A stretch of 64,000 nt of DNA from an uncultured Bacteroidales bacterium. GTDB lineage: Bacteria > Bacteroidota > Bacteroidia > Bacteroidales > WCHB1-69. Below the pieces are notes generated by a model, which did not search any database, was not told where the DNA came from, and saw only the letters and a program-made list of their open reading frames with translations. Shown here one piece after another: positions 14,402-58,398 of the stretch. A program made the translations under genes and the position numbers. Within the stretch, counting starts at the first letter, position 1; every line of letters starts with the position of its first letter. The stretch lies in NCBI GenBank assembly GCA_905233585.1, contig CAJOFD010000003.1, positions 4,201 to 68,200 on the forward strand, written 5' to 3'.

Positions 14402-14440
14402 AAAAAAGCATTTGTATTGCTTTTTTGTTTACTTTTGCAG
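14402..14440 (+). promoter_or_regulatory. conserved precursor-peptide promoter block (TTTG -33-like plus TACTTTTG -7 box)
   Basis: aaaaaagcatttgtattgcttttttgtttacttttgca. By hand alignment, ~34 of 39 nt are identical to 54807-54845, upstream of the second precursor. Confidence 0.55.
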
Positions 14441-14471
14441 AAAAATAAAAAATGAATTATTCATTATTCTT

Positions 14472-14754
14472 ATGAGCAAAAAATTAAATTTAGAAATTAT
14501 AGAAAAAAGGAAGCAATGTAGAATTCTCCACAATAACAGGAGAGGATATGAATCAAATAAGAGGAGGTGCTAACCGTTGTGATTGCAAGAATCGTTGTGA
14601 TAACAAAAAATGTTGTTATACTATTTCGAGTAGTTTGACTGGGGATAAAACGATAAAAACGGATATCCCTGTTAATATTCCTATAAATATGCCAGATACA
14701 ACGAGTACAGATTCTACCTCAACTACATCTATTATTGGAATATTTGGATTTTAA
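14472..14754 (+). pseudogene. GG-leader RiPP precursor peptide 1; the leader is interrupted by a +1 frameshift in an A6 tract
   Basis: Frame A reads MSKKLNLEIIEK and then runs out of frame. Frame B (track ORF 14548-14754) reads ...GSNVEFSTITGEDMNQIRGG-ANRCDCKNRCDNKKCCYT.... Removing one A from the 14503-14508 run joins them into a typical Bacteroidetes double-glycine leader. Confidence 0.6.
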
Positions 14755-14759
14755 ATATT

Positions 14760-14797
14760 ATGGATGTCTCATTTAAATGAGAGCATATCCATTTTTT
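14760..14797 (+). terminator. hairpin plus T-run immediately after the precursor gene (attenuator/terminator)
   Basis: atggatgtctcattt/aaatgagagcatatccat imperfect hairpin followed by tttttt, ending just before ATG 14798. Confidence 0.5.
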
Positions 14798-16231: not shown

Positions 16232-16233
16232 AT

Positions 16234-17538
16234 ATGATTTGGTCTAGGTATAATTATTTGTTTAAATCGGAAAAATATGGATATTTGTTATATAACTCTT
16301 TGAGTAATGCTTTTTTGCACATTCCAGATAAAAGCATTGGATTTATTAAAGAAATACAAAATAATCCAAATTTAATAAATGAATATGACGAAAAAGAATA
16401 TTTTCAAGAAAACAAAATTATAGTAGAAAATGACGATGATGAAATCGCTGTATTAAAAGTTTGTGAATCTATAAATCGTTATACATCAAATTCACTAGGT
16501 TTAACAATAGCACCAACTTTGGGCTGTAATTTTCGTTGTTCTTATTGTTTTGAACTGAATAAACAAGGTTCACGAATGAGCACCGAAATACAACAAGCTA
16601 TTGTCAAATATGTAAAGAAACGAGATTTTATTACAGATTTGAGTGTAACTTGGTATGGGGGAGAACCATTGCTATGTATGGATATTATTGAACATTTAAC
16701 AAAAGAATTTTTGTCTTTAGGAAAAAGATATAATGCTGATATTGTTACAAACGGCTACCTGTTATCTATAGATGTTTTTAGACAATTACAAAAATTAAAA
16801 GTTTACACAATTCAAATTACTTTGGATGGATTAGCAGAAACACATAATAAACGCAGACCTCATGCTAATACAAATAATTCTTTTGAACAAATAATAAATA
16901 ATTTAGATACTATTATTCCCATTAAAGAAAATACAGATATTTCCATCCGTGTAAATATTGATAAAAAAAATAAAAATGAATTTCCTGAATTATATTTCTT
17001 TTTACAAAAACGATACAAAAATTCTGTTTTTGTTTACCCTGCTTTTGTAGAAAATCTTAATGGCACTTGTAAAACAAGTGATTGTATGCAAGATGTAGAT
17101 ACTATGACCCAATATTTAATAGAATTATATAATAATTATGGAATTTATGATCAGAAATTTTTTCCCAAATTAACATATTCAAGTTGTATGGTACGAGATT
17201 TGCGGTCTTATGTGGTGGACCCATTAGGAAAAATGTACAAATGTTGGAATGACATTGGCATTAAGGGAAAAGAAGTTGCCGATATTACTGAAGATAAAAT
17301 TATTAATCAAAATCTATTGGCTCGATATTTAAAAGGTGCAGATAAAATGGATTCGTCTGAATGTGCTGTATGTCATTTATATCCTGTTTGTAGCGGAGGT
17401 TGTCCATATCATCGTTTATTGTATGTATATAATAAGAAACAAGTGAATTTTTGCCATATAGGCAAACATTATTTAGAAAAATTGTTGGAAATACACTATG
17501 ATTGGAAAATGAAGCAACAAAATTCATACAAAAAATAA
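16234..17538 (+). CDS. radical SAM / SPASM-domain peptide maturase
   Basis: GCNFRCSYCFE (CX3CX2C). C-terminal SPASM cysteines CMVRDLRSYVVDPLGKMYKCWND...SECAVCHLYPVCSGGCPY. Confidence 0.9.
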   Translation: MIWSRYNYLFKSEKYGYLLYNSLSNAFLHIPDKSIGFIKEIQNNPNLINEYDEKEYFQENKIIVENDDDEIAVLKVCESINRYTSNSLGLTIAPTLGCNFRCSYCFELNKQGSRMSTEIQQAIVKYVKKRDFITDLSVTWYGGEPLLCMDIIEHLTKEFLSLGKRYNADIVTNGYLLSIDVFRQLQKLKVYTIQITLDGLAETHNKRRPHANTNNSFEQIINNLDTIIPIKENTDISIRVNIDKKNKNEFPELYFFLQKRYKNSVFVYPAFVENLNGTCKTSDCMQDVDTMTQYLIELYNNYGIYDQKFFPKLTYSSCMVRDLRSYVVDPLGKMYKCWNDIGIKGKEVADITEDKIINQNLLARYLKGADKMDSSECAVCHLYPVCSGGCPYHRLLYVYNKKQVNFCHIGKHYLEKLLEIHYDWKMKQQNSYKK

Positions 17539-17554
17539 ATTCAATCTTATTTAT

Positions 17555-18832
17555 ATGCCACAAATGTACCCGAATACTAATCAGTCTTATTATTCCGAAC
17601 CAGTTCAAGAGATATTGGGTCGTCCTCCACGTTGGATAATTAGAGCGGGTATCACGGTGATATTTGTTGTAGTGGCGTTGTTGTTTATCGGAAGTTATTT
17701 TATCAAATATCCGGATGTATTACAAGCCCCCATTACCGTAACTACCGCCCACTTGCCCGCTGGTGTTATGGCTCGGACAACGGGACGGATTGATACGATT
17801 TTTGTGAAAGAAAAACAATCTGTCCAAACCGGTGATTTATTGGCTGTAATGGAAAATGCTGCCCATTGGCAAGATGTACTTTGGCTGAAAAACAACGTGG
17901 ATTCAGCCGAGCGAAACACTTCTCTGCAATTAGGAGAGATTCAATCATACTATTTTGCCTATCTGAAAGCCAAAGAAGATTATGCCTATTTTTTACGGAT
18001 GGACTATCATCGCAGAAAAATAAAAGTATTGGAAAAACAGATACGTACCCAAAAGAATATGTTACAAAATGTACGAAAACAATTAGCGATACAAGAGCAA
18101 CAATTGGACATTTCGCGGGAAGTATTTTACATGGATTCCTCTTTGTATGCCCAAGACTTGATTTCCAAATTGGAATATGAAACCGCCCGAAGCAAATATT
18201 TGCAACAGCAACAAAATTACGATAATACCAAATTAGGGTTCCATAGTGAAGAAATGAGTATTTTGCAATTGGAACAAGATATTTTTGATTTGGAACAAGC
18301 ATGTATAGACGAGGAAAACACTCTTTCGTTGGCATTGAATGGAGCCAAAGACCAATTGCAAGCCCAATTGGCAGATTGGGAAAAGGCTTATCTGTTGTAT
18401 GCTCCATGCAATGGTATTGCCACCTTTACCAAATATTGGCAAAGAAATCAGAATGTTTCAGCAGGCGAAATATTAGTAACGGTTGTTCCTCAAGAGCAAA
18501 GTCATATTATTGGAAAGATATTGCTTCCTCCTCAAGGAGCAGGCAAAGTGGAAGTAGGACAAACCGTGAATGTCAAATTAGACAATTTTCCTTATATGGA
18601 ATATGGTATGGTCAAAGTCAATATTCAGCATATTTCTTTGGTTCCGGTTCAATTAACAGATGGAAGTCAGGCTTATATGTTAGAGGTTGAATTTCCTGAT
18701 AAATTGCAAACAACATATCACAAAGATTTGGTTTTTAGTCAAGAAATGACAGGTACCGCTGAAGTTATCACCAAAGATTTACGATTATTGGACAAATTTC
18801 TCAATCCCATTCGTTATGTTTTTCAGCGATAG
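17555..18832 (+). CDS. HlyD-family membrane fusion / secretion protein
   Basis: N-terminal TM (AGITVIFVVVALLFIGSYF), a long coiled-coil middle and a beta-barrel-like C-terminus. Sits directly upstream of the C39 ABC exporter. Confidence 0.8.
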   Translation: MPQMYPNTNQSYYSEPVQEILGRPPRWIIRAGITVIFVVVALLFIGSYFIKYPDVLQAPITVTTAHLPAGVMARTTGRIDTIFVKEKQSVQTGDLLAVMENAAHWQDVLWLKNNVDSAERNTSLQLGEIQSYYFAYLKAKEDYAYFLRMDYHRRKIKVLEKQIRTQKNMLQNVRKQLAIQEQQLDISREVFYMDSSLYAQDLISKLEYETARSKYLQQQQNYDNTKLGFHSEEMSILQLEQDIFDLEQACIDEENTLSLALNGAKDQLQAQLADWEKAYLLYAPCNGIATFTKYWQRNQNVSAGEILVTVVPQEQSHIIGKILLPPQGAGKVEVGQTVNVKLDNFPYMEYGMVKVNIQHISLVPVQLTDGSQAYMLEVEFPDKLQTTYHKDLVFSQEMTGTAEVITKDLRLLDKFLNPIRYVFQR

Positions 18833-18868: not shown

Positions 18869-21025
18869 GTGAAAAAAGAATTTCCTTTTTATAAACAATT
18901 AGATGCAATGGATTGCGGTCCTACTTGTCTGCGAATGATAGCCAAGCATTATGGCAAACATTATTCATTAGACACCTTACGACAAAAAAGTTTCATCGGA
19001 CGTGATGGCGTAAGTCTGTTGGGTATAGGAAAAGCAGCAGAAAGCATAGGCTTCCGTTCTTTAGGGGTAAAAATTTCTTTTTCCCAACTATGCGAAGCCC
19101 CATTGCCATGCATTGTACATTGGAAACAAAATCATTTTGTTGTAGTATATGACATTCGCTTAAACAAGCGGAAAAATGGAACGGCAGATGGTTGGGTTTA
19201 TGTGGCAGATCCCGCGACAGGAAAAATCAAATACCGTATTTCTGAATTTCTTCAAAATTGGTTGAGCATACAAAACGGCATGGAAAAAGAAGGGATTGCC
19301 ATGTTGTTGGAAGCTACCCCTGATTTTTATGCCGCTGAAGGTGAAAAAACGGACAAAACGCGTCTCCGTTTTGTATTGCAATATCTTAAACCTTACAAAA
19401 AACTGATAGTCCAACTTTTCTTGGGTATGTTGTTGGGAACTATCCTGCAACTGATTTTTCCGTTTTTAACTCAAACCATCGTTGATTATGGTATCGGTAA
19501 TGATAATTTGAGTTTCATTACTTTGATTTTAATAGCCCAATTAACACTTTATGTGGCACAAACTTCGGTAGAATTTATCCGTTCGTGGATATTGTTACAT
19601 ATCAGTACCAGAATCAATATATCCATTATTTCCGATTTTTTGTTGAAATTGATGAAATTGCCCATAGGATTTTTTGATACCAAAATGATAGGCGACCTTA
19701 TGCAACGCATAGGTGACCACAGCCGTATTGAGTCGTTTTTGACCTCCTCCACATTAAATACCTTGTTTTCTTTTGTTAATCTGATAGTTTTCAGTGTGGT
19801 TTTGGCTGCATATAATTGGAAATTGTTTTTCGTATTTTTATTTGCCAGCATCATTTATGTTTTGTGGATAAGTTTATTCTTGAAAAAACGAAAAGAATTG
19901 GACTATAAACGTTTTGCACAAGCATCTGCCGAGCAAAGCAATCTATATCAAATGATAACGGGTATGCAGGAAATTAAACTCAACAATTGTGAAAAACAAA
20001 AACGTTGGGAATGGGAAAATATACAGGCAAATTTATTCAAAGTAAGTGTAAAAGGATTGGCCTTGAGCCAATACCAGCAAACAGGTGCTTTTTTTATCAA
20101 TGAGACCAAAAATATTTTGATTTCTTTTTTATCAGCGGCAGCAGTTATCAAGGGTGATATGACTTTAGGTATGATGACTGCTGTACAATATATTATTGGA
20201 CAGTTAAATTCTCCTATAAATCAAATGATTGGATTTATTCAGTCTGCCCAAGATGCCAAAATCAGTTTGGAACGTTTGGGCGAAATTCACAACAAAGAAG
20301 ATGAGGATGAACACACAGAAGCAAGGATAATTGCCTTGCCCGAACATCATAGTATAAGTTTTCAAAACGTAAGTTTCCGTTATGATGTTTTGGGCAAAAA
20401 TGTTTTGGAGGATATTTGTTTGCAGATTCCTCAAGGCAAGATTACAGCCATTGTAGGTATGAGTGGAAGTGGTAAAACAACCTTAGTCAAACTGATGTTA
20501 GGTTTTTATCCTCCAACACAAGGAGAAATCAGGGTGGGACAAACCGCCTTGCAAAATATAGACCCGCATTGGTGGAGGCAGCGTTGCGGAGCCGTTATGC
20601 AAGATGGCTTTATATTTTCGGATTCCATTGCCAAAAATATTGCTATCGGAGAGGATATTATCGACAATCATCGATTGCTTCATGCCGCTGAAGTTGCCAA
20701 TATTCAAGAGATGGTTTCATCTCTGCCTTTAGGCTTTCAAACCAAAATCGGACAAGAAGGAAAAGGAATATCCCAAGGTCAGAAACAACGGATTTTGATA
20801 GCACGAGCCGTTTACAAAAATCCCGATTTTATCTTCTTCGATGAAGCGACAAATGCCTTGGATGCCAACAATGAACGCATTATCATGGATAATCTTCAAC
20901 AGTTTTTTAAAGGCAAAACGGTTGTCATTGTTGCTCATCGTTTAAGTACTGTTAAAAATGCGGATAATATTCTTGTTATCAATAACGGTAGAATTTCCGA
21001 ACAGGGAACCCACGAATATTTATAA
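18869..21025 (+). CDS. peptidase-C39-domain ABC transporter (bacteriocin/RiPP exporter), 3'-truncated by prophage insertion
   Basis: C39 motif QLDAMDCGPTCLRMIAKHYG; six-TM domain; Walker A GMSGSGKTT; signature ISQGQKQR; Walker B FIFFDEATNALD; H-loop VAHRLST. The ORF ends at ...EQGTHEYL* exactly at the phage junction, and the rest of the C-terminus is at 54724-54790. Confidence 0.9.
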   Translation: MKKEFPFYKQLDAMDCGPTCLRMIAKHYGKHYSLDTLRQKSFIGRDGVSLLGIGKAAESIGFRSLGVKISFSQLCEAPLPCIVHWKQNHFVVVYDIRLNKRKNGTADGWVYVADPATGKIKYRISEFLQNWLSIQNGMEKEGIAMLLEATPDFYAAEGEKTDKTRLRFVLQYLKPYKKLIVQLFLGMLLGTILQLIFPFLTQTIVDYGIGNDNLSFITLILIAQLTLYVAQTSVEFIRSWILLHISTRINISIISDFLLKLMKLPIGFFDTKMIGDLMQRIGDHSRIESFLTSSTLNTLFSFVNLIVFSVVLAAYNWKLFFVFLFASIIYVLWISLFLKKRKELDYKRFAQASAEQSNLYQMITGMQEIKLNNCEKQKRWEWENIQANLFKVSVKGLALSQYQQTGAFFINETKNILISFLSAAAVIKGDMTLGMMTAVQYIIGQLNSPINQMIGFIQSAQDAKISLERLGEIHNKEDEDEHTEARIIALPEHHSISFQNVSFRYDVLGKNVLEDICLQIPQGKITAIVGMSGSGKTTLVKLMLGFYPPTQGEIRVGQTALQNIDPHWWRQRCGAVMQDGFIFSDSIAKNIAIGEDIIDNHRLLHAAEVANIQEMVSSLPLGFQTKIGQEGKGISQGQKQRILIARAVYKNPDFIFFDEATNALDANNERIIMDNLQQFFKGKTVVIVAHRLSTVKNADNILVINNGRISEQGTHEYL

Positions 21026-29791: not shown

Positions 29792-31393
29792 TTATTCTGC
29801 TGCGTAATTTACATCATTGACTATCATTTGCAAGGCCATAGAGAGCTTCTCCATAAAGTCTCCGGCCGTCTCCGGACTGTCTTGGCTGCTTTGGAACATA
29901 TTCGTGTTTTCTCCTATCAGGCTGCCTATCGTGATATTGAAATTCTTGATATTCTTACCCCCGGCACTGATGGTTTCACTTGAGGTGCTCAAGTCGTTGT
30001 TGATGGTTTTTGTGTTGTCGGTGATTCCCAAACCCAAACTTGCCTGTAAATCCTTGCTCACACCTTTCAATGTCTTGCTCTTGTCAAAACTCAAGCTCAC
30101 TCCCTTCCATGCGTTGGCGGCGGCTTGGGCGTGTTTGGCCACTTCTTTTGCTCCTCCGCTTATCGCTTTTTTCCTCCGCTCTATGTCATCGCTTATTTCT
30201 TTCAGTGCCCGGTTGTTTTCTATTTCATCACCTTTGCCTAACAGCAGTTTTAACTTATACCATGCCTCTCTGAGTTTGTCTATGCCTATCATTATGCCGT
30301 TAATCATGGTGGTATATTTCAGTTTTACAACCTCTACAAACATCGCAAAGGTCTCTTTGGCAAAGGTTACTACGGCATCCCACAAGGTACCCCAACCTTT
30401 TATCTTCACGCACAAAAACACCACAATGGCTATCAAGGCAACTATACCCGCTATGACCAAACCAATGGGATTAAGAGACATGACTACATTTAATATTCCT
30501 TGTACTGTTATCCAACCTTTAATGGCCAATATTACAGCACCTATTCCAATGGATAAGATTTCAAACAATCCTTTATGGTCTTCAATAAAACCAACAACGG
30601 CCGTGCTTATCTCCAACAAACGTTCTACGATTGGAGCAAGGGAGGATTTTAGGTCTGTAACTAATTTGCCAATACGTTCTTTCAAATCCCCAATATTATT
30701 ACTTACTTGTTTCATGGCTCCTTCTGGTGTATTGGCCAGTGCTTCGTTCACTCCGCCAACGGCACTGCTCACCACTTCGGCCAAGGTGGCAGCACGTTGT
30801 TCTTCTGTGCCGAATTTCAGTATTTTCTCTTGGTTTTCGTCAAACTTGTAGCCGTAACGACTCAAGGCTCCCACCTGTCCGTCCATCACTTTCCCCATCA
30901 TGGTGGCTATATTCACGGCACTTTCTTGACTGGCGTTCATACCGTATTGTTGGGCTACCATGTCGTTCATCACCGGCATCAACTTCTTCAAAGTGTCGGC
31001 TTTGGTCAGATAAGTTCCCAATTCTTGAGCTCCTGCCAATTGAACCTCGTCGCCGATAACCCCCAATTTTTGTTGTGCCGATGCCAAGTCAAGTATGCTT
31101 TGCATTTCCTCCCGGCTCGCTCCCATGGTGTTCCGCATCACCTGTGCCAATTTTGTCTCCGCCTCCACCTGGGCATAACTCAAAGCTTCAAATCCCGACA
31201 ACTTACTTGTCAAGCCACTTATGGCATGGCTGATGGTTTCAAAGGCAAAGCCTACGTCACGTATTTTTGTTATCGTATTGGTGAAGTTAGTTACATGGCT
31301 TGTTGCTGTTTGTACACCCTGCGAAATGGCAGCAATGTTTTCTTGAGCGTTGCCTGTAATATTTATTGCAAATTGTACTGTATTATTTGACAT
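29792..31393 (-). CDS. tail tape measure protein
   Basis: 533 aa, Ala/Gly/Ile-rich, with central hydrophobic helices (ILSIGIGAVILAIKGWITVQGIL..., GLVIAGIVALIAIVVFLCV). Located after the sheath/tube/chaperone genes. Confidence 0.8.
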   Translation of the reverse strand: MSNNTVQFAINITGNAQENIAAISQGVQTATSHVTNFTNTITKIRDVGFAFETISHAISGLTSKLSGFEALSYAQVEAETKLAQVMRNTMGASREEMQSILDLASAQQKLGVIGDEVQLAGAQELGTYLTKADTLKKLMPVMNDMVAQQYGMNASQESAVNIATMMGKVMDGQVGALSRYGYKFDENQEKILKFGTEEQRAATLAEVVSSAVGGVNEALANTPEGAMKQVSNNIGDLKERIGKLVTDLKSSLAPIVERLLEISTAVVGFIEDHKGLFEILSIGIGAVILAIKGWITVQGILNVVMSLNPIGLVIAGIVALIAIVVFLCVKIKGWGTLWDAVVTFAKETFAMFVEVVKLKYTTMINGIMIGIDKLREAWYKLKLLLGKGDEIENNRALKEISDDIERRKKAISGGAKEVAKHAQAAANAWKGVSLSFDKSKTLKGVSKDLQASLGLGITDNTKTINNDLSTSSETISAGGKNIKNFNITIGSLIGENTNMFQSSQDSPETAGDFMEKLSMALQMIVNDVNYAAE

Positions 31394-37990: not shown

Positions 37991-38437
37991 ATGACAAACC
38001 TGACAATCGAACAAAAAAAGGATTACGCCCGTCAGCTCTACCTCAACGATTCCGGCATCACGCAGGCCGAAATCGCCGACCGTGTCGGCGTTTCAAAGGT
38101 TACCCTCTGCAAATGGGTCAAAGACGGCAAATGGCAGGAACTGCAAACCTCTTTGCTTGTCGGCAAAGAAGAACAATTGGCTCGCCTATATAGACAGTTG
38201 CGGTTGCTCAACGATGCCATCGAAAGCAAAGAAGACCAAAAATTCGCTACCTCCAAGGAAGCCGATGCCATTCTAAAACTTACCGTGGCTATCAAAAACT
38301 TGGAGACCGAAACCAATATCGCAGAAAAAATGGCTACAGGCAAAGAGTTTTTGGCATACGTAAGAAAAACCGCTGGTTTTGACACCAGCAAAGATGTCGC
38401 TAAATTGTTCAACGCTTATATCAAATCTTGTTTATAA
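37991..38437 (+). CDS. terminase small subunit-like HTH protein
   Basis: HTH ITQAEIADRVGVSKVTLCKWVKDGKW. Overlaps the terminase large subunit start. Confidence 0.55.
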   Translation: MTNLTIEQKKDYARQLYLNDSGITQAEIADRVGVSKVTLCKWVKDGKWQELQTSLLVGKEEQLARLYRQLRLLNDAIESKEDQKFATSKEADAILKLTVAIKNLETETNIAEKMATGKEFLAYVRKTAGFDTSKDVAKLFNAYIKSCL

Positions 38438-44500: not shown

Positions 44501-45811
44501 TTATAAAAAAAAACTTTTCAAACGGTTCAACAGGTTGTTAGCTTTGCTTGGCTTGCTATGTTGCTCCTCATTGAAAGGGTTTTGCAAAGCGTTTTCAAAG
44601 GGATTAAAAGAGGCTTGCATTCTCATTTCCTCTTTCAATTCTTCGTAATTCTCCGGCTTGGGAATGTCAAATTCTTCATATATATAATCGTCATCAACGG
44701 GAACTCTGTCTGCAATGGAGTTGATGATATTCCATTTTGTCTGCAGTTCGTTCCAGTCTTTGTCGGCAGAGCGGTACCAGATGTCTCCGTCTGTAACATT
44801 GAAGCCGAAGCGTTTCAAAATGGCTCTGAACTTAGTATTTAGAATAGACAATATAAATTGTTTGTCATTCGCGGTTTTGGCATCTTCCACTTCCTTATGA
44901 ACTTCGCCAAGCGAACGTGCACCTGTTTCGCCTTGTTCTGTTGTGAGTGTGTTGCCGAGTATTGTTTTAGAAATGGAAGCGTCGCAAGCGGCTATAAGGC
45001 TGTTGTAAACATCGTTAGAGCCTGTCGAGCCACCTGTTTGGTGTATTTTAAGTTCTGCAGAGCGAGGGTGAAGCGAATACCCTGCTGCTCCCCATTCCTG
45101 TAAGCCTTGTTCGAGTTTCGCACGTGTTGCTTCATCATAATCATCGTAAACCATCTCACGGAATGGCATGCCGAACATCTCTGCAAATTGTGACCAGTCT
45201 CCGAAGCCGCCACGCTTGTATATTACATATTGTGCTGCTTTTGCAAACAACCCCTTATCGGTTTTGTCGCCCGCCCACAGCATATAGTTGGCCAACGGAG
45301 GCTCCATATACATCCAGTCTTTGGTCGCCATGGATTGTTGCCGGCTGATGCACTCAAATCCCTCTTCCGGATGCACGTGCTTCCTCGGTATCAGGTCAAA
45401 GTCTATCTTGTAGCTTTCTTCTGTTTCATCGTACCAAATGTTGTTCACCTGTATCAGCGTATATCCCCATGCAATGGAGTTGTGCAGTTCTTTGATAAGG
45501 ATACGCATATCTGGTGAGTTTAGCAACTTGCAAATTTGCTCATCTTCGACGCCGTCTTTAACGAATATCAATTCTTGGTTGAGTACGGCATCCTGTCGCT
45601 TGCCCCATGTGGCTTCTATTTGCCCGTCCAACAGTATGTCTTCATACAAGTCATACAAAGCGGTTCTGCTGGGATTGACAAGGTTTTCAAAGGCTTTGAC
45701 AGCCGTTTTCCAATTCTGAATATCCTGCGTATTGTGCGAAGCATTCTGAATATTGATATTGTTGACAATTACATTGTCGGGTTTCTTCTTTTTTTCGTAT
45801 TTTACTGCCAT
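44501..45811 (-). CDS. portal protein (Mu gp29 / DUF935-like)
   Basis: 436 aa; size and position upstream of the MuF-like gene. Confidence 0.6.
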   Translation of the reverse strand: MAVKYEKKKKPDNVIVNNINIQNASHNTQDIQNWKTAVKAFENLVNPSRTALYDLYEDILLDGQIEATWGKRQDAVLNQELIFVKDGVEDEQICKLLNSPDMRILIKELHNSIAWGYTLIQVNNIWYDETEESYKIDFDLIPRKHVHPEEGFECISRQQSMATKDWMYMEPPLANYMLWAGDKTDKGLFAKAAQYVIYKRGGFGDWSQFAEMFGMPFREMVYDDYDEATRAKLEQGLQEWGAAGYSLHPRSAELKIHQTGGSTGSNDVYNSLIAACDASISKTILGNTLTTEQGETGARSLGEVHKEVEDAKTANDKQFILSILNTKFRAILKRFGFNVTDGDIWYRSADKDWNELQTKWNIINSIADRVPVDDDYIYEEFDIPKPENYEELKEEMRMQASFNPFENALQNPFNEEQHSKPSKANNLLNRLKSFFL

Positions 45812-49336: not shown

Positions 49337-49946
49337 TTAATCCCCAATACTTTAACGCCAAATCTTCATTTATATCAATATATTTTCCTCCGCCATATCG
49401 ACCCACAGGGAAGCCCCTAAAACCCTCAACACGAATATAAACATTGCTATCTCTCCATATTTTCTGAGCAACGCTTCCTTCAGGTTTGTTGCCATCTATG
49501 TGACTTATATAGATAAATAGTTTGTTGGGGAAACTGTCCTTCAATTGCTTATACTCGCTCCATTTTAACCCTAAAAACTGCACGCTATCGATTATAACCA
49601 CATCTGGACTACTTCGACGAATTAATCGCTCTTCCATTTCTTTCACATCCTCTTTGTCTAAGAGTATAAATCGTCTGCGAACATCTTCCATGTCTGTGCG
49701 TTGAATCGCAGCACGAATACTAAGAGATAAACCCTCTTCGACACTGTTATATGCCACTTTTGCGAATTTGCACATATACTTAGCCATCTGCATTGCAAGA
49801 GTTGTTTTACCATTCTTGGGAGCACCGTAAATTAGCCAGCTCCCTCCCAATTGTGGACAACCAATAGCGTCCAACCACTGCCCATCAAACTGCAGGGTCT
49901 TAAATTTCGCATTAATAACATTTTGAACGCTGTATGCCCTTTTCAT
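49323..49946 (-). CDS. RecA-superfamily P-loop ATPase (KaiC/DnaB-C-like)
   Basis: Walker A YGAPKNGKTT; Walker B VVIIDSVQFL. Confidence 0.6.
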   Translation of the reverse strand: MKRAYSVQNVINAKFKTLQFDGQWLDAIGCPQLGGSWLIYGAPKNGKTTLAMQMAKYMCKFAKVAYNSVEEGLSLSIRAAIQRTDMEDVRRRFILLDKEDVKEMEERLIRRSSPDVVIIDSVQFLGLKWSEYKQLKDSFPNKLFIYISHIDGNKPEGSVAQKIWRDSNVYIRVEGFRGFPVGRYGGGKYIDINEDLALKYWGLNDEK

Positions 49947-50824
49947 TACGCTCTATTTTTGCAGATTTCTTTATATATTCTCCTCAAGCTCGGCATTCCG
50001 TCATCGCCCATTGTCTTACGCAACAACCTGTTAATATCATCTCCGCCATTCGCTTTGATTATCATAGAAGCCGTTGTCTTCATCATTTCCTTGCCGGATT
50101 CGCCGTCTGCGACAACATTGCCATATCTTTTCCCAAATCGTGAGAATATTTCAGTATATCCAACCTTCTTATTATTAATGCTTCTTTGTATCTTTGCCTT
50201 TAATCCGTCTGCCCCCATCATGTACCAGCCACATGCACCCTCTGTTGCGTTCCAGAGTGCCTTTATTTCAAGCCACGCCTCGTAGTGTAAATCGCCAGCC
50301 TCGTCTAATATTATTAAAGGTTTTTCTAATTGCTTTAAATAATATATTGTGTTCGCCTCAACATCGTTTAGTCTTCCAGAACTGTCAAGTCCGAACGCTT
50401 TTGCAATAGTTCTTATTAGCTGTGTTTTCCCTTTTGCAAGACTACAATCTATATAGGCAACATTTTTGTGTGTTTTTGCATAGATTTTAGCTGTCCATGT
50501 TTTACCTATGTCGCTCAAATCGCACAACAAACTACTCAGAGCCTCGTTTTGACATATCTCTAACTGTGTAGTGATAAAATCAAAAATTGGCGTTCTTGCT
50601 GTCTGCCACACTGGAGCATTTCCGATATTAACTTCCAACTGTCTTGCAATCGCAATCCAATTAGTGTCCGATAACACCTGTTCTACGTCGCCATTCTTTA
50701 CCCTGCTGTATTGTGAGCCGCTAATACCTAACCATTTGGCGAACTTGCTGTCGCTGCCACCGAACATGGGGCGATGCTCTTGCATCGCATCAACTATTTT
50801 GTGTTTTAGTTCTTTTGTAATCAT
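49946..50824 (-). CDS. MuB-like AAA+ transposition ATPase with N-terminal HTH
   Basis: HTH FAKWLGISGSQYSRVKNG; Walker A-like LSDIGKTWT; Walker B LIILDEAGD. Immediately downstream of the transposase. Confidence 0.75.
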   Translation of the reverse strand: MITKELKHKIVDAMQEHRPMFGGSDSKFAKWLGISGSQYSRVKNGDVEQVLSDTNWIAIARQLEVNIGNAPVWQTARTPIFDFITTQLEICQNEALSSLLCDLSDIGKTWTAKIYAKTHKNVAYIDCSLAKGKTQLIRTIAKAFGLDSSGRLNDVEANTIYYLKQLEKPLIILDEAGDLHYEAWLEIKALWNATEGACGWYMMGADGLKAKIQRSINNKKVGYTEIFSRFGKRYGNVVADGESGKEMMKTTASMIIKANGGDDINRLLRKTMGDDGMPSLRRIYKEICKNRA

Positions 50825-50848: not shown

Positions 50849-52837
50849 TTATAATAATTCTCGTGCCAATGTTGCAAAATCCGCAGTCTCAAATTCGTCA
50901 CCATCATAATTTAAAGGCTGTTGTGTCTCTACTATCTCAACATCTTCGACGATGTGGTGTCTTTTGTTCATTGTTTTCACTTCAGTTCCGCCAACATGGG
51001 GCAATTGGGAACGTCTTTCTCTTATCATTTTGTCGAATTTTGCAACTCTCTTCTGCTGATGCAGCATCGCTGCTTCGTCTTCTTCTGTACGTTCTATTGC
51101 AAATTCATTGTACCTGTATTGTTCCATATTAAATGCTTCGCCGATGTAGGTATCGCCTTGATATAGATATGCTGTTGTAATGCCACCGTCTTCGTTGGGT
51201 AGCCAATATGCCTCAACTTTTTTTGAATTCGATTTCATTCGTTCAAGGCTCGCAAAATCAGCCAATTCAAAATGCTCGCCTTGCACCATCAGCCTGTTGT
51301 TATTAACTATGCTCGTCGCCGTCTTGTTGCCGATAAAATGGTACAAATACCATGACTCAATAGCCTTCAAGTTCGGATTCGCACGACTCAACAACACGTC
51401 TTTTCTCGTCATACCCGGATACAACTTCTGTTGAGGATGTAATTCGTTGTTGTGTCGTTCGATGTCTTCAATGTCGTCAACGATTATTGTACGCTCAGAT
51501 TGACTTGCTACTGTATAATCGCCGTCAATTTTAGCACGTACACTCTTGTACGCCTCGTGCTTAGCATACCAACGACCGAACGTGTGTCCTGCTTTCTTTG
51601 CACTTCCATACTTCAACGACCTGATATTATGCTCCGCTCTCTTTTCAGTCGCCGAAGAGCAGAATCGAACGAATGGGAACACTGCGTTCAACCAGTCTAT
51701 ATGCTCCATCAAGTGATGTTCCACTTCCAATTCGCCTGGTGTTGGTAAGCCTAATTCAATCAACTCGCAGAACATGTTTCTAAAAGCCTCCAATACGGTG
51801 TCTTCGTTGGGTTTTCCTACTATGTAGGCAGGACGGAAGTAGTAGCCGCTCAACACGTCAACGGCAATGTACTTGTACACCCATTTGCCGTCCTTTGTTT
51901 TGCGTGAAAGAGCCACGTCGTCCATGCTTATCTTGCTTAAGCTGTATTGTCCGAGTTTGCGAACATGTTTTGGTCGGCGACTATTTTGATAGTCAAAATT
52001 GCCGTTTCTGTCCGCATATACCGCTGTACAGTTCACAACATCTTTCAGGTAACCCCATACTGTCGCCTTACTTATAGACAGACTTCTGCCTTTATGTCTA
52101 AAATCTTCAGGTCTGAACAATTCTCCCGTTTCTTTATCGTACAGTTCTCTATCTCCGCTGATAAACTCATTGTACAACTCCCAAACTCGGTCGATAAATG
52201 GTTTATCGTTCGTTCTCCACAACGAAAGTAGTAGATTTTCCATACTAACAGAAACTTTCCTTGTGTTATCGTTTCCAATTTTTCCGCTTATAATACTATT
52301 GTAACCCATTTTTAAAAAAGCTTTAAATATTCTTTCAAAACTTCTTACATTGGTAATTTCGGCACATGGGAACATTCCTCTTTGCTCATTGTACCATTTT
52401 AATGCCTGTGCGTACCATTCTCCGGTTTTGATACGTTTGCCGGTCTTAGCACGCTCTGTTTGTTGTATTTCTAATCCTTTTTTCAACGCCTCCAATAGGC
52501 TTGCTCGGTTAGTATATTGTTCTATTAAATTATGTTCCAACGGAGTTCCATCATTCTTTCTATAAGATATATAGTAAGATTTTGCTTCTTGGCTAATTTT
52601 TGCATTGTAATTAGACGGTTTACTCTCTTCTATAACACCATACGCCGCCTCGATAGCTCTACGCCTATCTGAGCGTCTTATGCTCTTAACATCAATCAAG
52701 GTATTACCACGAATTGACCGATAAGCGATTTTCAACATCCCCCTCTTGCTGTCATGTTCGAACATACTTTTTGTCAACCCGGCAGCCATCCAATCGTTTA
52801 CGCTTATTACTACTGTTCCTCCTACGTTCTTATACAT
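50849..52837 (-). CDS. MuA-like DDE transposase
   Basis: 662 aa. rve-like core ISMDDVAL...YIAVDVLSGYYFRP...KRAEHNIRSLKY. Located between the Ner-like and MuB-like genes next to a phage end. Confidence 0.7.
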   Translation of the reverse strand: MYKNVGGTVVISVNDWMAAGLTKSMFEHDSKRGMLKIAYRSIRGNTLIDVKSIRRSDRRRAIEAAYGVIEESKPSNYNAKISQEAKSYYISYRKNDGTPLEHNLIEQYTNRASLLEALKKGLEIQQTERAKTGKRIKTGEWYAQALKWYNEQRGMFPCAEITNVRSFERIFKAFLKMGYNSIISGKIGNDNTRKVSVSMENLLLSLWRTNDKPFIDRVWELYNEFISGDRELYDKETGELFRPEDFRHKGRSLSISKATVWGYLKDVVNCTAVYADRNGNFDYQNSRRPKHVRKLGQYSLSKISMDDVALSRKTKDGKWVYKYIAVDVLSGYYFRPAYIVGKPNEDTVLEAFRNMFCELIELGLPTPGELEVEHHLMEHIDWLNAVFPFVRFCSSATEKRAEHNIRSLKYGSAKKAGHTFGRWYAKHEAYKSVRAKIDGDYTVASQSERTIIVDDIEDIERHNNELHPQQKLYPGMTRKDVLLSRANPNLKAIESWYLYHFIGNKTATSIVNNNRLMVQGEHFELADFASLERMKSNSKKVEAYWLPNEDGGITTAYLYQGDTYIGEAFNMEQYRYNEFAIERTEEDEAAMLHQQKRVAKFDKMIRERRSQLPHVGGTEVKTMNKRHHIVEDVEIVETQQPLNYDGDEFETADFATLARELL

Positions 52838-53503: not shown

Positions 53504-53504
53504 T

Positions 53505-54167: not shown

Positions 54168-54597
54168 TTTTTTTATTAAGTTTTAGATGTTTTTTTACAT
54201 AAAGTATTGAAATATAACGATATAATTATATATTAATATGTCAATTATATGTCAATTATATTCAATTAAAGGGTATCAAACTCGCAAAAAAAGCCGTTTT
54301 TTTGTGCGTTTTTTGCAACTATACCCATATGAACTACACACAAATGACGTAGTTTTTGCCGTAGTTTTGCCGTAACTCGTATTTTTTTTTAATTTTTTTT
54401 AATTTTTCATTTTCGCAGTAATGCGTCTTTATGTGCGTCTGTCTTTCGTTTTTAATGCTTGTTTTTTCTATTTTTTTACGTAAACAAAAACGCACAAAAC
54501 CCCGCAAATACAGTCGTTTGTACGCAATTAAACAAAAATATAAGATTGTTCTAATCCAATTAAAAAAGTCTTTAAAAAAAGCGTTTAAAATCTGCCA

Positions 54598-54630
54598 AAA
54601 ATTAAAGCAAAATTAAAGCAAAATTAAAGA
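54598..54630. repeat. 11-bp tandem repeat x3 (aaaattaaagc) abutting the inner transposase-binding site
   Basis: Read directly; two perfect copies plus one with a single change. Confidence 0.85.
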
Positions 54631-54631
54631 A

Positions 54632-54715
54632 GTTGTACATTTCGTTTTAAATCGGCAAAATGTAACTAATTGTTTTTTAGGCAAAAAATATTTACTACTT
54701 GTACATTTCGTTTTA
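54632..54715. repeat. prophage c-end transposase-binding repeats (2 copies, 66-bp spacing)
   Basis: gttgtacatttcgtttta (54632-54649) and cttgtacatttcgtttta (54698-54715) are reverse complements of the 21030-21074 repeats. Confidence 0.8.
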
Positions 54716-54723
54716 TACCCCAT

Positions 54724-54790
54724 ATATTTGACCAACTTTAAAGGAGAATATTTTAATTTGGTAAAAAATCAATTGGAATTGGGAATTTAA
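54724..54790 (+). pseudogene. displaced 3' end of the C39 ABC exporter gene
   Basis: Joining ...GTHEY at 21019 to 54728 onward reads in frame as GTHEYLTNFKGEYFNLVKNQLELGI*. This is the canonical C-terminus of this exporter family. Confidence 0.8.
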
Positions 54791-54806
54791 ACTAAATAAT
54801 TTTTTC

Positions 54807-54845
54807 AAAAAAGAATTTGTATTATTTTTTTGATTACTTTTGCGA
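54807..54845 (+). promoter_or_regulatory. conserved precursor-peptide promoter block, copy 2 (TACTTTTG -7 box at 54835-54842)
   Basis: aaaaaagaatttgtattatttttttgattacttttgcg; ~34/39 identical to 14402-14440. Confidence 0.55.
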
Positions 54846-54899
54846 TGTTTTTTCATAAAAACAAGCAAACAAAAATTTGATAATTTAAATGTATAACAA

Positions 54900-55186
54900 A
54901 TGGAAAAAATAGATAAATAGATAAATATAAAAATGCAAAATTAGAAAACATGGATGCCATTATAGGTGGGAGGGAAGTTAGAAAATCTTATAATAGCAAT
55001 ACAGACATTCATCATGTTTTGCAAGATAAAACTATTTATAATAATAATGGTTGTATTGTTAAAGTCAAATTATGGGATGAGGGCGTAAAATATGTAGCTA
55101 CATATGCAGGAGATTGTCAGAATGGTTATGACGGCTCTATTCCAAAGGACGGAAATAAAGCAACGAGGGAATATTTTAGTATTTAA
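54900..55186 (+). pseudogene. GG-leader RiPP precursor peptide 2; the leader is interrupted by a perfect 8-bp tandem duplication
   Basis: ATG 54900 reads MEKIDK*. The track ORF frame reads IDKYKNAKLENMDAIIGG-REVRKSYNS.... ATAGATAA is duplicated at 54909-54916 and 54917-54924. Deleting one copy gives MEKIDKYKNAKLENMDAIIGG plus a 71-aa core. Confidence 0.6.
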
Positions 55187-55228
55187 CATAAATTTAATGT
55201 TTTTATTATAAACAGATAGAAGGTAATA

Positions 55229-56131
55229 ATGAGAATATTATTCTTGTCATTATTTTTCTTTATCTTGTGTTTAAAAGATGGACTTTCCCAGTCGGATTAC
55301 CTTACCTATTTCCGATTAAAAAATAAAGCGGAAGTTGCTATTTGTCAAGATCAATATGCCAATGCCTTAAATTACTACAAATTGGCATTTCAAGTAGTGG
55401 ATTTCCCATTATATAAGGAGTTAAACAATGCTTTTATTTGCTCTTTATTAGTGGGGGATACTGTTTATTTATATGATTCCCTATCCATTTATTCGGGACG
55501 CATAGATTTAAATCGTATTGAAAATCAATATTATATTCAATCCTATTCCAATACACAAACATGGAAGCAATTTGTGAAACAAGCAAATATTTATAGAACT
55601 ATTGCAACAAACAGCATCAATAATAATTATATACGGTTATTGGATTCTTTAGATAAAGAGGACCAAAAACCACGTCAGATAGGCATTACGAAAAGAAACA
55701 AAATAGCAAAAATAGATAGTTTAATTGCTATTGCTACAGATCAATTAATGCATTGTTGGGATTATCCTAATGAACGAAATACAGGTCTAAAATATGTAAC
55801 AAACTCTCCGATATGTATTTGGCATAGAATTGATACGACATTCATTAATTATGAATATCAAATGTTGTGTGAGGGGAAAATGGAGCCAGAACTTTATGTA
55901 AGAAAAAAAAGTTATGCTTCCTCAATACAAGTTGTCATGAAAAAATCAATAATAGAGAAAGACAAATATTGTAGACTTTCATTTTCAAAACTGACAACAA
56001 TGGAATTAGAAGAAGTGAATAAAAATCGTTCAGCTATAGGTTTCCCCACTACAGAAGAGTGGAAAATTTTATGCAAAGCACGGAAAGAAAAAACAGAAAT
56101 GGGTTTTATCTTTCATATATTTATACTATGA
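55229..56131 (+). CDS. secreted protein of unknown function in RiPP module 2
   Basis: Signal peptide MRILFLSLFFFILCLKDGLSQ. 300 aa. ATGA-coupled to the ATP-grasp gene. Confidence 0.6.
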   Translation: MRILFLSLFFFILCLKDGLSQSDYLTYFRLKNKAEVAICQDQYANALNYYKLAFQVVDFPLYKELNNAFICSLLVGDTVYLYDSLSIYSGRIDLNRIENQYYIQSYSNTQTWKQFVKQANIYRTIATNSINNNYIRLLDSLDKEDQKPRQIGITKRNKIAKIDSLIAIATDQLMHCWDYPNERNTGLKYVTNSPICIWHRIDTTFINYEYQMLCEGKMEPELYVRKKSYASSIQVVMKKSIIEKDKYCRLSFSKLTTMELEEVNKNRSAIGFPTTEEWKILCKARKEKTEMGFIFHIFIL

Positions 56132-57099
56132 TTGTTATTGTTTCTCAAGAAAACGATAGTTCTACAAATGATGTAATGGATTGGTTATACGCATGGAATA
56201 AAAAAGTTGTGCGAATCAATGAAACCGATACAATTAATTCATTCTCTTTACAAATAGATGATAATGATCTGTCTTTAATTTTTCGTTGTGGAAACAAAGA
56301 ATTTAAAATATCTGACGTAGATTATTTTTGGTTTCGAAGAGGAGGCTTTGTGTTTGATGTGTCATTTCTAACAAAAATAGAACCGCATTTTTATACGTAT
56401 TTAAAAGAACACTTATCAGATGAGTGTAACACAATGAAGGATTTTTTAGTTTATTTATTAAATAAGAAACCTTCTTTGGGTAATTATTATCAGGGAAATG
56501 CAAATAAATTAATAAGTTTATATGTTGCTCAAAAAGTTGGAATGGAAATACCCAATACCATAATTTCTTCTGCCAAGGAAGATTTACTACATTTTTACAA
56601 AAATCAGAAATCGAGTATAACAAAATTTATACAAGATGTTTTATGTTTTAATTATCAAGGATATAGATATTATACAAATACTTCCCTTGTTGAAAAAAAC
56701 GACATAAAAAAAATGAGGGGAACCTTTTTCCCATCCCTTTTACAAAAGGAAATACATAAACGTTATGAATTGAGAATTTTTTATTTAAAGGGGAAATGTT
56801 ATTCTATGGCAATATTTTCACAAGAAGATAAACAAACAGTTATTGATTTTCGAAACTATAATGACCAAATTCCTAATCGTTATGTTCCTTATAAACTACC
56901 TCATAATATTGAAGATAAAATAGATAAGTTTATGCATAAAATGAATTTAGATACAGGTTCTATAGATATGATTGTTACGCCTGATTTAAAATATATTTTT
57001 TTAGAAGTTAATCCTGTTGGACAATATGATATGGTATCTGTTCCATGCAATTATTATCTACATAAAAAAATAGCACAAACAATTAGTAACAATGAATAA
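56128..57099 (+). CDS. ATP-grasp peptide ligase (RiPP maturase, MvdC/D-like)
   Basis: Start reassigned to MIVIVSQENDSST (ATG 56128). Motifs NKLISLYVAQKVGMEIPNT, ELRIFYLKGKCYSMAIFS, VIDFRNY and GSIDMIVTPDLKYIFLEVNPVGQY. Confidence 0.8.
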   Translation: MIVIVSQENDSSTNDVMDWLYAWNKKVVRINETDTINSFSLQIDDNDLSLIFRCGNKEFKISDVDYFWFRRGGFVFDVSFLTKIEPHFYTYLKEHLSDECNTMKDFLVYLLNKKPSLGNYYQGNANKLISLYVAQKVGMEIPNTIISSAKEDLLHFYKNQKSSITKFIQDVLCFNYQGYRYYTNTSLVEKNDIKKMRGTFFPSLLQKEIHKRYELRIFYLKGKCYSMAIFSQEDKQTVIDFRNYNDQIPNRYVPYKLPHNIEDKIDKFMHKMNLDTGSIDMIVTPDLKYIFLEVNPVGQYDMVSVPCNYYLHKKIAQTISNNE

Positions 57100-57280
57100 A
57101 AAAAAATTTATAGAGATTATTCATGATCAGGGAGATAGAGCATATCCTCTTCATTATAAGGATGTTAAAATGCGAAAAAATCGAATTGGGAAATTTCAAC
57201 AAAATATTTTTGTTGAAATGTTTCAATCTAAATGTTGTGAATCCTTTTGTTATTATAAACCTATTTCTAAAATATTGTGA
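57092..57280 (+). CDS. small Cys-rich ORF between the ATP-grasp and SPASM genes (candidate substrate or accessory peptide)
   Basis: 62 aa, MNKKKFIEIIHDQGD...FQSKCCESFCYYKPISKIL. Its start overlaps the ATP-grasp stop and its stop overlaps the next gene. Confidence 0.4.
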   Translation: MNKKKFIEIIHDQGDRAYPLHYKDVKMRKNRIGKFQQNIFVEMFQSKCCESFCYYKPISKIL

Positions 57281-58398
57281 GTAATTTTGTGCAGATGTAT
57301 GCTTGTTGTATTCCAGTAAAAGGATACAAAAGGTCTCTAATTTATGATTTACAGCGACCGCAAAATTCAAATTTTATTCCTAACGACATGTATGATATAA
57401 TAGTCGATTTTAGAAATAAAAGCATAGAGGAAATAAAAAGATTATATCAATATCAATACAATGAAGAAATTGACTCTTATTTTCATTTTTTGTTGGAGAA
57501 TAATTTTGCTTTTGTATTGCAGAAAAATGAGTTAAACAATTTTCCTCCTTTGGAAAACATATGGGAATCACCATCTGAAATAACCAATAGCATTATATAT
57601 GTATCCAAGAAAAACATTAAATATCTTAATTTACTATTAAAACAATTGTCAGATTTGCGATGTGATGCAGTGCAATTCTGTTTTACAGACAACATAACTA
57701 TTGAACATATTCATATATTAGGAAAACAATTGGAATTGTTACGCATTCTTTCAGTAGAAATATTATTTAACTACAATGATTTATTAAACATATCTGACAT
57801 GTTATCTGTCATAGATAAATATCCTAGAATTCGTCGAGTAGGAATAGGAAATTGTCCCCAAGAGTTTTCTTGTACAGATAAGAGATTATATTGCACCATA
57901 AATCAAATTGATTGGGAAAATGGATGTGGAAATATTTCCTCTCAATATTTTTCCATTGGAATGGAAATGTTTTTTGAATCACAACATCATAATACATGCC
58001 TCAATAGAAAAATATGTATTGATATGAATGGAAATATTAAAAATTGTCCGTTTATGAAGCAAAGTTTTGGTAATATTAAAAATACAACTTTAAAAGAAGC
58101 AATAGTAAAACAGGGATTTAAAGATTTCTGGTTCATTTGCAAAGATAATATTGAAGTATGTAAGAATTGTGAATTTCGTTATATGTGTACAGATTGTCGT
58201 TGTTATATCAAACAACCAGCAAATATCTATTCTCCGCCATCTAAATGTACATACAATCCATATATAACTTTGTGGAAACATCAAAAGCATTATGTTCCCA
58301 TAGAAGAATGTGGTTATTTTGATAAATCATTTCGATTTGTTCCGGATTATGAAAAAATAGATATGTTAAACAAGACTATTTGGGGAGATAAAGAATGA
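57277..58398 (+). CDS. SPASM-domain protein lacking the radical-SAM CX3CX2C motif (grasp-with-SPASM-type partner)
   Basis: C-terminal SPASM cysteines CLNRKICIDMNGNIKNCPF...VCKNCEFRYMCTDCRCY. No CX3CX2C anywhere in the N-terminal 230 aa. The likely true start is MYACCIPVKGYKRSLIYDLQR (ATG 57295). Confidence 0.75.
   Translation: MSNFVQMYACCIPVKGYKRSLIYDLQRPQNSNFIPNDMYDIIVDFRNKSIEEIKRLYQYQYNEEIDSYFHFLLENNFAFVLQKNELNNFPPLENIWESPSEITNSIIYVSKKNIKYLNLLLKQLSDLRCDAVQFCFTDNITIEHIHILGKQLELLRILSVEILFNYNDLLNISDMLSVIDKYPRIRRVGIGNCPQEFSCTDKRLYCTINQIDWENGCGNISSQYFSIGMEMFFESQHHNTCLNRKICIDMNGNIKNCPFMKQSFGNIKNTTLKEAIVKQGFKDFWFICKDNIEVCKNCEFRYMCTDCRCYIKQPANIYSPPSKCTYNPYITLWKHQKHYVPIEECGYFDKSFRFVPDYEKIDMLNKTIWGDKE

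Follow-up and report, generated by a model that had tools for sequence, protein, structure and literature searches.

A 64,000-nt stretch of contig CAJOFD010000003.1 (NCBI GenBank assembly GCA_905233585.1, positions 4,201 to 68,200 of the forward strand) from an uncultured Bacteroidales bacterium, referred to here as the window, carries an island for peptides that are made ribosomally and then modified after translation (RiPPs), which has been split by a Mu-like transposable prophage. In the reading that we favour and hold to be likely, the island would encode two precursor peptides that are matured by different sets of enzymes and leave the cell through one exporter, and the copy in this genome is most likely switched off. 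With the prophage deleted, the locus measures ~10.3 kb (the island overall ~10-13 kb) and has two parts (Table 1). The first comprises, in order, a Cys-rich double-glycine precursor (precursor 1), an S41-family peptidase, a radical S-adenosylmethionine (rSAM)/SPASM maturase, a HlyD-family adaptor and a C39-peptidase/ATP-binding cassette (C39-ABC) exporter. The second comprises a 92-aa double-glycine precursor (precursor 2), a 300-aa protein, an ATP-grasp ligase, an LPL-family protein and a SPASM-only protein. Contigs and loci used for comparison are denoted by L or P and a number.

An exact look-up of the 300-aa protein returned nine metagenome contigs. Six of these (L002, L003, L004, L006, L007, and L009) share 99.6-99.9% identity with the window and are free of the prophage. 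All six join window position 21021 straight to 54724 with a 6-nt overlap, so that the insert can be placed at 21022-54723, flanked by a duplicated ATATTT (21016-21021 and 54724-54729). In the empty-site sequence, the exporter gene is uninterrupted. In the window, its open reading frame (ORF) stops at 21025 after ...GTHEYL, and the frame resumes at 54724-54790 as ...YLTNFKGEYFNLVKNQLELGI*. The prophage has thus cut off the last 19 codons of the exporter gene, leaving the ATPase domain 19 residues short. An initial annotation of this DNA had proposed that the end of the exporter gene continues in frame beyond the insert and that a prophage had split one contiguous locus; the ORF reading and the six contigs without the insert bear out both proposals.

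The two modules behave as a unit. They lie on the same strand, ~110 nt separate the exporter stop codon from precursor 2, and the locus has a single C39 exporter, whose gene forms an operon-like series with those of the S41 peptidase, rSAM enzyme and HlyD adaptor (intergenic gaps of 3-36 nt). In contig L003, two copies of a 72-nt direct repeat (492-563 and 13258-13329) bracket the entire island of 12.8 kb, and the closest relative of the locus, L011, presents a parallel arrangement that is described below. Both leaders end in M-x-x-I-x-GG (DMNQIRGG and NMDAIIGG), which matches the single C39 exporter as the initial annotation had stated; beyond these last eight residues the two leaders are dissimilar.

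The near-identical promoter block that had been reported before both precursors is borne out: the 29-nt pattern ATTTGTATTnnTTTTTTGnTTACTTTTGC is found at two places in the window and no others (chance expectation 0), and it is retained in every contig of this species. Alignment of the two upstream regions also agrees with the second block having been placed ~17 nt after the exporter stop codon, this being where the stretch common to both precursors begins. The TACTTTTG within the block fits TAnnTTTG, which we take to be the consensus of the Bacteroidetes -7 element. A duplicated promoter block of this kind would co-regulate both precursors. A sigma-70 promoter scan, which is uninformative for Bacteroidetes, gave counts at or below chance, and a search of Rfam revealed no known RNA family in the precursor upstream regions. 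RNA folding predicts a hairpin followed by a U-tract 3' of precursor 1 (-11.5 kcal/mol, z = -2.85), which is probably a leaky terminator, and no hairpin 3' of precursor 2. Contig L176 has an inverted repeat at the matching position, which looks by eye like a stronger hairpin.

The window copies of both precursors carry frameshifts. In precursor 1, the A6 run at 14503-14508 is one A too long, and removing that A gives MSKKLNLEIIEKGSNVEFSTITGEDMNQIRGG/ANRCDCKNRCDNKKCCYTISSSLTGDKT... (leader and core separated by a slash). An intact homologue that L176 carries upstream of its S41 and rSAM genes, MKLEIIES...DMRNIEGG/LDSCTKSGCTKSCTKCGCYTTTSSLTGDKT..., lends support to this repaired reading. A weak tblastn match (E 0.004) also links precursor 1 to the precursor of L093. 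In precursor 2, a tandem duplication of 8 bp (TAGATAAA, 54910-54925) breaks the leader. The same duplication is found in L008 and L010 and is absent from L002-L007, in which the intact peptide reads MEKIDKYKNAKLENMDAIIGG/REVRK...REYFSI (92 aa). Its leader is conserved, together with the ATP-grasp gene, in L011, L012, L014, and L019, with the consensus ME(K/S)I..(Y/F)KN.K(I/L).(D/N)M....GG. The 71-residue core is conserved in L011, L014, and P0248, where Asp-Lys, Gly and Trp positions are invariant. A pair of core cysteines is spaced C-x21-C in the window, L011, L014, and P0248 and C-x20-C in P0249, and is absent in L012 and L019. The core family is tiny, as an exhaustive search of 1.84 billion representative proteins yielded just two related clusters.

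The window copy is probably dead or off, judging from the prophage in the 3' end of the exporter gene and the frameshifts in both precursors. Its homology with the prophage-free contigs begins only at 14898, inside the S41 gene. Upstream of this point the window, L001, L094, and L095 carry an IS30-family transposase fragment, the promoter block and precursor 1. The transposase (13654-14376, plus strand; NF033563, 231.6 bits, profile positions 47-267) is truncated at its N-terminus and marks the point at which the haplotypes diverge. In contigs L003 and L004, the place of precursor 1 is taken by two further paralogues of S41, which share ~25% identity with the main S41 peptidase. In the prophage-free strains, a recent tandem duplication of part of a second S41 paralogue (713-3249 of L003) has left a 290-aa copy that shares 90% identity with the C-terminal part of the 506-aa one, so that three S41 genes stand in a row. 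Because the prophage-free strains lack precursor 1, the ~11-kb pre-phage locus drawn in the initial annotation stands as regards its contiguity, but with precursor 1 at its head it is a chimera of two haplotypes. In the prophage lineage, every copy of precursor 1 carries a frameshift, while that of precursor 2 affects the window, L008, and L010 and spares L005. One added A (A8 to A9 near 16963) breaks the frame of the rSAM gene in L094 (10001-11306) and L095 (1936-3241), which are independent assemblies. Every lesion that was found sits in contigs of the prophage-type haplotype only, a pattern that would fit relaxed selection after the exporter was hit.

Table 1. Features of the RiPP island and of the prophage inserted in it (window positions).
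Feature	Position	Strand	Evidence or comment
Promoter block copy 1, ATTTGTATTGCTTTTTTGTTTACTTTTGC	14410-14438	+	holds TACTTTTG
Precursor 1 pseudogene	14472-14754	+	sequence; intact homologue in L176
Hairpin and U-tract 3' of precursor 1, overlapping the S41 start codon	14760-14798	+	RNA fold
S41-family peptidase, N-terminal signal-like segment	14777-16231	+	Pfam Peptidase_S41
rSAM/SPASM peptide maturase, unnamed subfamily	16234-17538	+	Radical_SAM, TIGR04085
HlyD-family membrane-fusion adaptor	17555-18832	+	TIGR01843, HlyD_3
C39-peptidase/ABC exporter, truncated at 3' end by prophage	18869-21025	+	Peptidase_C39, ABC_membrane, ABC_tran
Mu-like transposable prophage, 33,702 bp	21022-54723		genes mostly on minus strand
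Tape measure	29792-31393	-	PHROG
Tail sheath	32555-33910	-	PHROG
Major head protein	35151-36269	-	PHROG
Head protease	36715-37884	-	PHROG
Terminase	38428-39972	+	PHROG
Portal	44501-45811	-	PHROG
MuB-like transposition protein	49946-50824	-	PHROG
Transposase	50849-52837	-	PHROG
Displaced 3' end of ABC exporter gene; 54724-54729 is the second ATATTT	54724-54790	+	
Promoter block copy 2	54815-54843	+	
Precursor 2 (graspetide-type) pseudogene	54900-55186	+	frameshifted by tandem duplication
300-aa protein, N-terminal signal-like segment	55229-56131	+	
Grasp-with-SPASM ATP-grasp peptide ligase (GwsG)	56131-57099	+	TIGR04192
62-aa LPL-family accessory protein, overlaps both neighbouring genes	57092-57280	+	
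SPASM-only protein (GwsS), without CX3CX2C	57277-58398	+	TIGR04193
72-nt repeat from 3' end of phosphopantetheinyl-transferase gene; right edge of island	58486-58557	+	

Gene families were assigned by NCBIfam and Pfam profile scans with curated or gathering cutoffs. The exporter has a C39 domain with its catalytic Cys at the N-terminus, followed by ABC membrane and ATPase domains; it matches Peptidase_C39 (112 bits), ABC_membrane (113 bits) and ABC_tran (104 bits) of Pfam, and its translation contains the motifs QLDAMDCGP and HFVVV. The HlyD adaptor scores 112 bits against TIGR01843, under the curated cutoff of 208.65, and 42.6 bits against Pfam HlyD_3 (cutoff 22.2). The S41 peptidase (PF03572, 52 bits, gathering cutoff 24) has a TYSAAS motif that can be recognised by eye, while the usual Lys position was not placed; a sequence search found no relative of this peptidase among solved structures. 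In the rSAM enzyme, the signature CNFRCSYC occupies residues 98-105, and C98, C102, and C105 are invariant. It scores 54.7 bits against Radical_SAM (cutoff 29.5) and 53.3 bits against the SPASM model TIGR04085 (cutoff 27), and lies below the cutoff of every named equivalog. The best of these is TIGR04334 (Clo7bot; 232 bits against a cutoff of 600), followed by TIGR04463 (214/525), CefB (186/600), PapB (111/340), and the SCIFF maturase (77/425). By its profile scores, the enzyme is assigned to an unnamed subfamily of rSAM/SPASM maturases.

The first module is, as far as gene content indicates, a conserved cassette with its own exporter. In L176, where the rSAM enzyme is 62% identical, the precursor, hairpin, S41 gene, rSAM gene, and the start of a C39-ABC gene follow one another in this order, and many of the more distant rSAM homologues are located behind Cys-rich double-glycine peptides. 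The module resembles the thioether-forming rSAM/SPASM families of ranthipeptide and sactipeptide maturases (PapB, CteB, Clo7bot, CefB), which likewise combine CX3CX2C and SPASM with an adjoining Cys-rich precursor and among which the best profile matches of the window enzyme fall. It differs from them in that the enzyme scores under their equivalog cutoffs, in the double-glycine leader with C39-ABC export, and in the paired S41 peptidase, which both of the closest relatives examined have but only four of 83 wider relatives. The GG-Bacteroidales rSAM system (TIGR04148/04149/04150), which the initial annotation had named for checking, is similar in that a Bacteroidetes double-glycine peptide lies beside an rSAM/SPASM enzyme and in the concept of a pseudo-rSAM partner. 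Membership of this system was considered and rejected: neither window precursor matches TIGR04149 at E <= 1 (the related precursor of L091 scores 19.8 bits, where the cutoff is 25), and the best matches listed for the rSAM enzyme are to other families.

The second module is, on its gene content and profile scores, a standard grasp-with-SPASM cassette and belongs to a described family. The initial annotation had pointed to in-silico families that pair an ATP-grasp with a SPASM protein, and both are recovered above cutoff. The ATP-grasp matches TIGR04192 over its full length (positions 1-317 of 318; 335.8 bits, cutoff 230) and has 2265 homologues at E <= 1e-10, being common in Bacteroidota, and its partner matches TIGR04193 (284 bits, cutoff 175). 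The statement that this partner lacks the SAM-binding triad extends to the family members from related loci: CX3CX2C occurs in 0/73 of them, while ten cysteines (11, 129, 217, 241, 257, 295, 298, 304, 307, and 324) are conserved, including the series C295-x2-C298-x5-C304-x2-C307 plus C324. It is genuinely SPASM-only. No relative of it was found among solved structures by sequence search, and a model built from the single sequence was too poor for use (mean predicted local distance difference test [pLDDT] score of 37.8).

The 62-aa ORF between these two genes (..RAYPLHYKDVK...YYKPISKIL) had been listed as a small Cys-rich ORF, but its cysteines are not conserved. Instead, it is identified as an LPL-family accessory protein by the motifs YPLHY and, at the C-terminus, YKPISKIL; [LFY]P[LIV]xY and a C-terminal KPISK are found in the ORF at the same position in most of 72 related loci. 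A role as a third precursor was also considered and rejected, as the ORF has no double-glycine leader, no conserved Cys, and the KPISK that characterises the whole family. In annotation, it should be named as an LPL accessory protein and not as a precursor, and the locus should be marked as disrupted in this genome. The C-terminal (Y/H)KPISK(I/L/C) of LPL proteins is strongly conserved from L011 to L090, and we noticed no mention of it in the portions of PMC8939145 that were consulted.

The 300-aa protein has no match in Pfam or NCBIfam, and its AlphaFold model (five-sequence alignment; mean pLDDT 49.5) was too poor for use. Homologues occupy the equivalent position in L011, L014, and L178, with weaker single-sequence matches (27-35 bits) in L019 and L057, and the protein is always found 3' of this type of precursor. 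In L178 (475-3075), where the ATP-grasp is 63% identical, two consecutive pairs of a graspetide-type precursor and a 300-aa homologue are present, which suggests that each such protein is paired with its own precursor, as would be expected of an immunity protein. It is a candidate for either an immunity factor or the "cluster 23" protein of the clusters described next.

The second module as a whole is already on record in silico. Makarova et al. (2022; PMC8939145) describe "branch 5" as the largest uncharacterised group of graspetides and as specific to Bacteroidetes. Its parts are given there as an ATP-grasp together with a SPASM protein of TIGR04193, double-glycine precursors of diverse kinds, and a "cluster 23" protein that is often secreted or lipidated. 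A small protein of the "LPL family" invariably lies directly upstream of the gene for the SPASM protein, and C39-ABC and HlyD are commonly present. The "group 14" graspetides delineated with RODEO always co-occur with a SPASM protein (Carter et al., 2026; PMC13097080), and in a 2026 preprint the genes receive the names gwsG and gwsS and are located on integrative and conjugative elements of Porphyromonas beside a type I-like exporter. Our literature search found no reported product or chemistry for grasp-with-SPASM clusters. The suggestion of an undescribed system is therefore too strong, since the second module with HlyD and C39-ABC has been described in silico in these three sources. The rSAM half is of a familiar kind, though unnamed, and what is modestly novel is the recurrent coupling of the two halves.

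The window shares with grasp-with-SPASM clusters an ATP-grasp and a SPASM protein above cutoffs, the LPL protein upstream of the SPASM gene, an upstream double-glycine precursor, a protein with a signal-like segment in the cassette, and HlyD and C39-ABC in the locus. It differs from them in that its exporter shares an operon with an additional rSAM/S41 module, an arrangement unseen in 80 other loci, in the restriction of its precursor core family to two clusters, and in the disruption of the copy. Microviridin-type graspetides (MvdC/MvdD), which are the characterised representatives of the class, have the same ATP-grasp fold, with partial profile similarity (TIGR04184, 148.9 bits; TIGR04185, 146 bits), and a leader-dependent logic can be expected in both. 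However, the window protein scores far under the MvdC/MvdD cutoffs of 475 and 425, its leader lacks a microviridin-type recognition motif, as Makarova et al. also say of branch 5, and the cassette adds the SPASM partner and the LPL protein.

How unusual the composite is was gauged from 80 loci fetched around ATP-grasp homologues, of 519 among GTDB species representatives, and from 83 loci centred on homologues of the rSAM enzyme (31-44% identity). All but one of the 80 ATP-grasp loci have the SPASM partner, an ABC-transporter match lies within 10 kb in 44 (~35 of them strong and C39-ABC-like), and HlyD is present in 28. The claim that linkage to a second rSAM enzyme and an S41 protease is unusual holds, with 0/80 and 0/83 related loci showing it, and the absence of co-occurrence marks the pairing as lineage-specific. 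Since single-sequence phmmer with the window rSAM enzyme missed the rSAM gene of L011, a scan for CX3CX2C with Pfam confirmation was used instead, and this detected a maturase-like rSAM gene in L011 only among the 80 ATP-grasp loci. Locus L011 belongs to a Bacteroidales metagenome-assembled genome, and its ATP-grasp is 70% identical to that of the window. Its genes are, in order, those of the graspetide cassette, of a second precursor that is Cys-rich and of the double-glycine type, of an rSAM/SPASM enzyme not orthologous to that of the window, of an HExxH protein that begins with a signal-like segment, and of HlyD with C39-ABC. Both of its precursors are preceded by a near-identical sequence of ~75 nt that runs to the start codon (1-90 and 4150-4250). 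As L011 carries an analogous composite, the same design has been built twice with non-orthologous parts, and this recurrence is the most interesting point to emerge from the comparison. That the linkage to a second rSAM module recurs hints at the co-production of two different peptides through one exporter.

We propose the following working for an intact island. In the first module, the rSAM/SPASM enzyme would cross-link the cysteines of precursor 1, family membership pointing to links of the thioether type, and the signal-bearing S41 peptidase might, more speculatively, trim the long Ser/Thr-rich tail of this precursor. In the second, the ATP-grasp would recognise the leader of precursor 2 and form side-chain ester or amide macrocycles, as its family suggests. 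The LPL protein and GwsS could act as an accessory or second-modification pair, for instance as a chaperone or in redox chemistry, and the 300-aa protein could be an immunity or extracellular processing factor; both proposals are speculative. Finally, the C39 domain is predicted from motif and domain to cut both leaders after GG during ABC/HlyD export.

Several points weigh against this proposal. The window-type rSAM enzyme and S41 peptidase are found in none of the 80 ATP-grasp loci, and the rSAM-homologue loci contain an ATP-grasp in 0/83, an ABC transporter in 16/83 and an S41 peptidase in 4/83. The prophage-free strains lack precursor 1, leaving their rSAM enzyme with no obvious substrate nearby, and no examined contig has both an intact precursor 1 and an exporter gene free of interruption. 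All of the proposed chemistry derives from family membership, and inactivation of the truncated exporter by the loss of 19 residues is presumed.

Under one alternative, which we consider unlikely, the locus would hold two independent neighbouring clusters, the exporter serving only the rSAM/S41 operon, with the graspetide cassette functionally separate and the block no more than a strong promoter in common use, copied along with the precursors. The short gaps that tie HlyD and the ABC gene to the S41 and rSAM genes would be expected under such an arrangement, as would L176, in which the rSAM gene is followed directly by C39-ABC and no ATP-grasp appears in the 3.2 kb seen, and the want of co-occurrence in the wider relatives just mentioned. 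However, the leader of the graspetide precursor is canonically double-glycine and the locus offers no second C39 exporter to cut it, while ABC matches within 10 kb are a frequent feature of ATP-grasp loci (44/80, ~35 strong). Moreover, L011 repeats the combination of two precursor types, one exporter and a duplicated upstream block, and the repeats in L003 bracket the island as one unit.

It is also conceivable, although very unlikely in our judgement, that the rSAM enzyme and S41 peptidase act on the graspetide precursor itself, giving a single peptide with ATP-grasp macrocycles as well as radical-SAM cross-links, and with precursor 1 as an optional extra substrate. The prophage-free strains, which keep an intact rSAM gene and three S41 genes while the 92-aa type is the sole double-glycine precursor in their 16-18 kb contigs, could be explained in this way, and the C-x21-C pair conserved in the core of close homologues could serve such a hybrid. 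Yet homologous rSAM enzymes adjoin Cys-rich peptides of the precursor 1 type and not graspetide-type cores, L011 supplies a separate Cys-rich precursor for its own rSAM enzyme, and the two leaders differ outside their last eight residues. That the island is a non-functional relic across the whole species, as frameshifts at three sites in the prophage lineage, the IS30 transposase fragment and recombination scars flanking the island, and the lack of any intact precursor 1 seen in this species might suggest, is highly improbable given that only contigs with the prophage-type haplotype carry the lesions found and that prophage-free contigs from several samples have all their genes of both modules intact at 99.6-99.9% identity, the 92-aa precursor included.

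Returning to the preferred reading of two precursors sharing one exporter, a bolder extension is that the modules are a deliberately coupled pair and that the coupling of a graspetide to a Cys-rich rSAM peptide arose in two related lineages of Bacteroidales whose rSAM enzymes and peptidases are non-orthologous, in both cases with a duplicated promoter and one exporter. We give this extension a small chance of being right. If true, the island could specify a two-peptide weapon with both halves made together or, in the haplotype lacking precursor 1, a hybrid peptide combining ATP-grasp rings with rSAM or SPASM-only Fe-S chemistry, and either outcome would give a first handle on the role of the GwsS/LPL pair. 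For experiments on such clusters, with their SPASM protein that is unable to bind SAM, this species offers a compact gene set, natural intact and broken alleles, and a well-conserved core.

The insert is a Mu-like transposable prophage. Its genes were identified by PHROG profiles (Table 1), and its GC content of ~0.42 contrasts with 0.27-0.36 in the locus. As in Mu and Mu-like phages, a DDE transposase and a MuB-like protein are encoded near one end, a contractile-tail virion module is present, and repeats of the transposase-binding type lie in inverted orientation at both ends, here as two copies of TAAAACGAAATGTRCAAC per prophage end, within a short target duplication. The duplication of up to 6 bp (ATATTT) differs from the 5 bp of Mu, although one base could be coincidence. 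The gene table of the sister contig L094 includes a match to Pfam Phage_Mu_Gp36. The prophage had zero nucleotide matches by megablast to 50,697 phage records, and a search of IMG/VR with its transposase recovered no close relative.

Two minor observations concern the surroundings of the island and the prophage interior. Copies of the 3' end of a phosphopantetheinyl-transferase gene recur at 58486-58557 and 60142-60319 of the window and at 492-563, 13258-13329, and 14892-14963 of L003, and look like a recombination or integration scar; L006 apparently lacks the PEGA-domain gene between two of the repeat copies. Within the prophage, the sole Rfam match of the window is to the c4-2 antisense RNA (RF02944; 41691-41766, minus strand; 48.3 bits, gathering cutoff 41).

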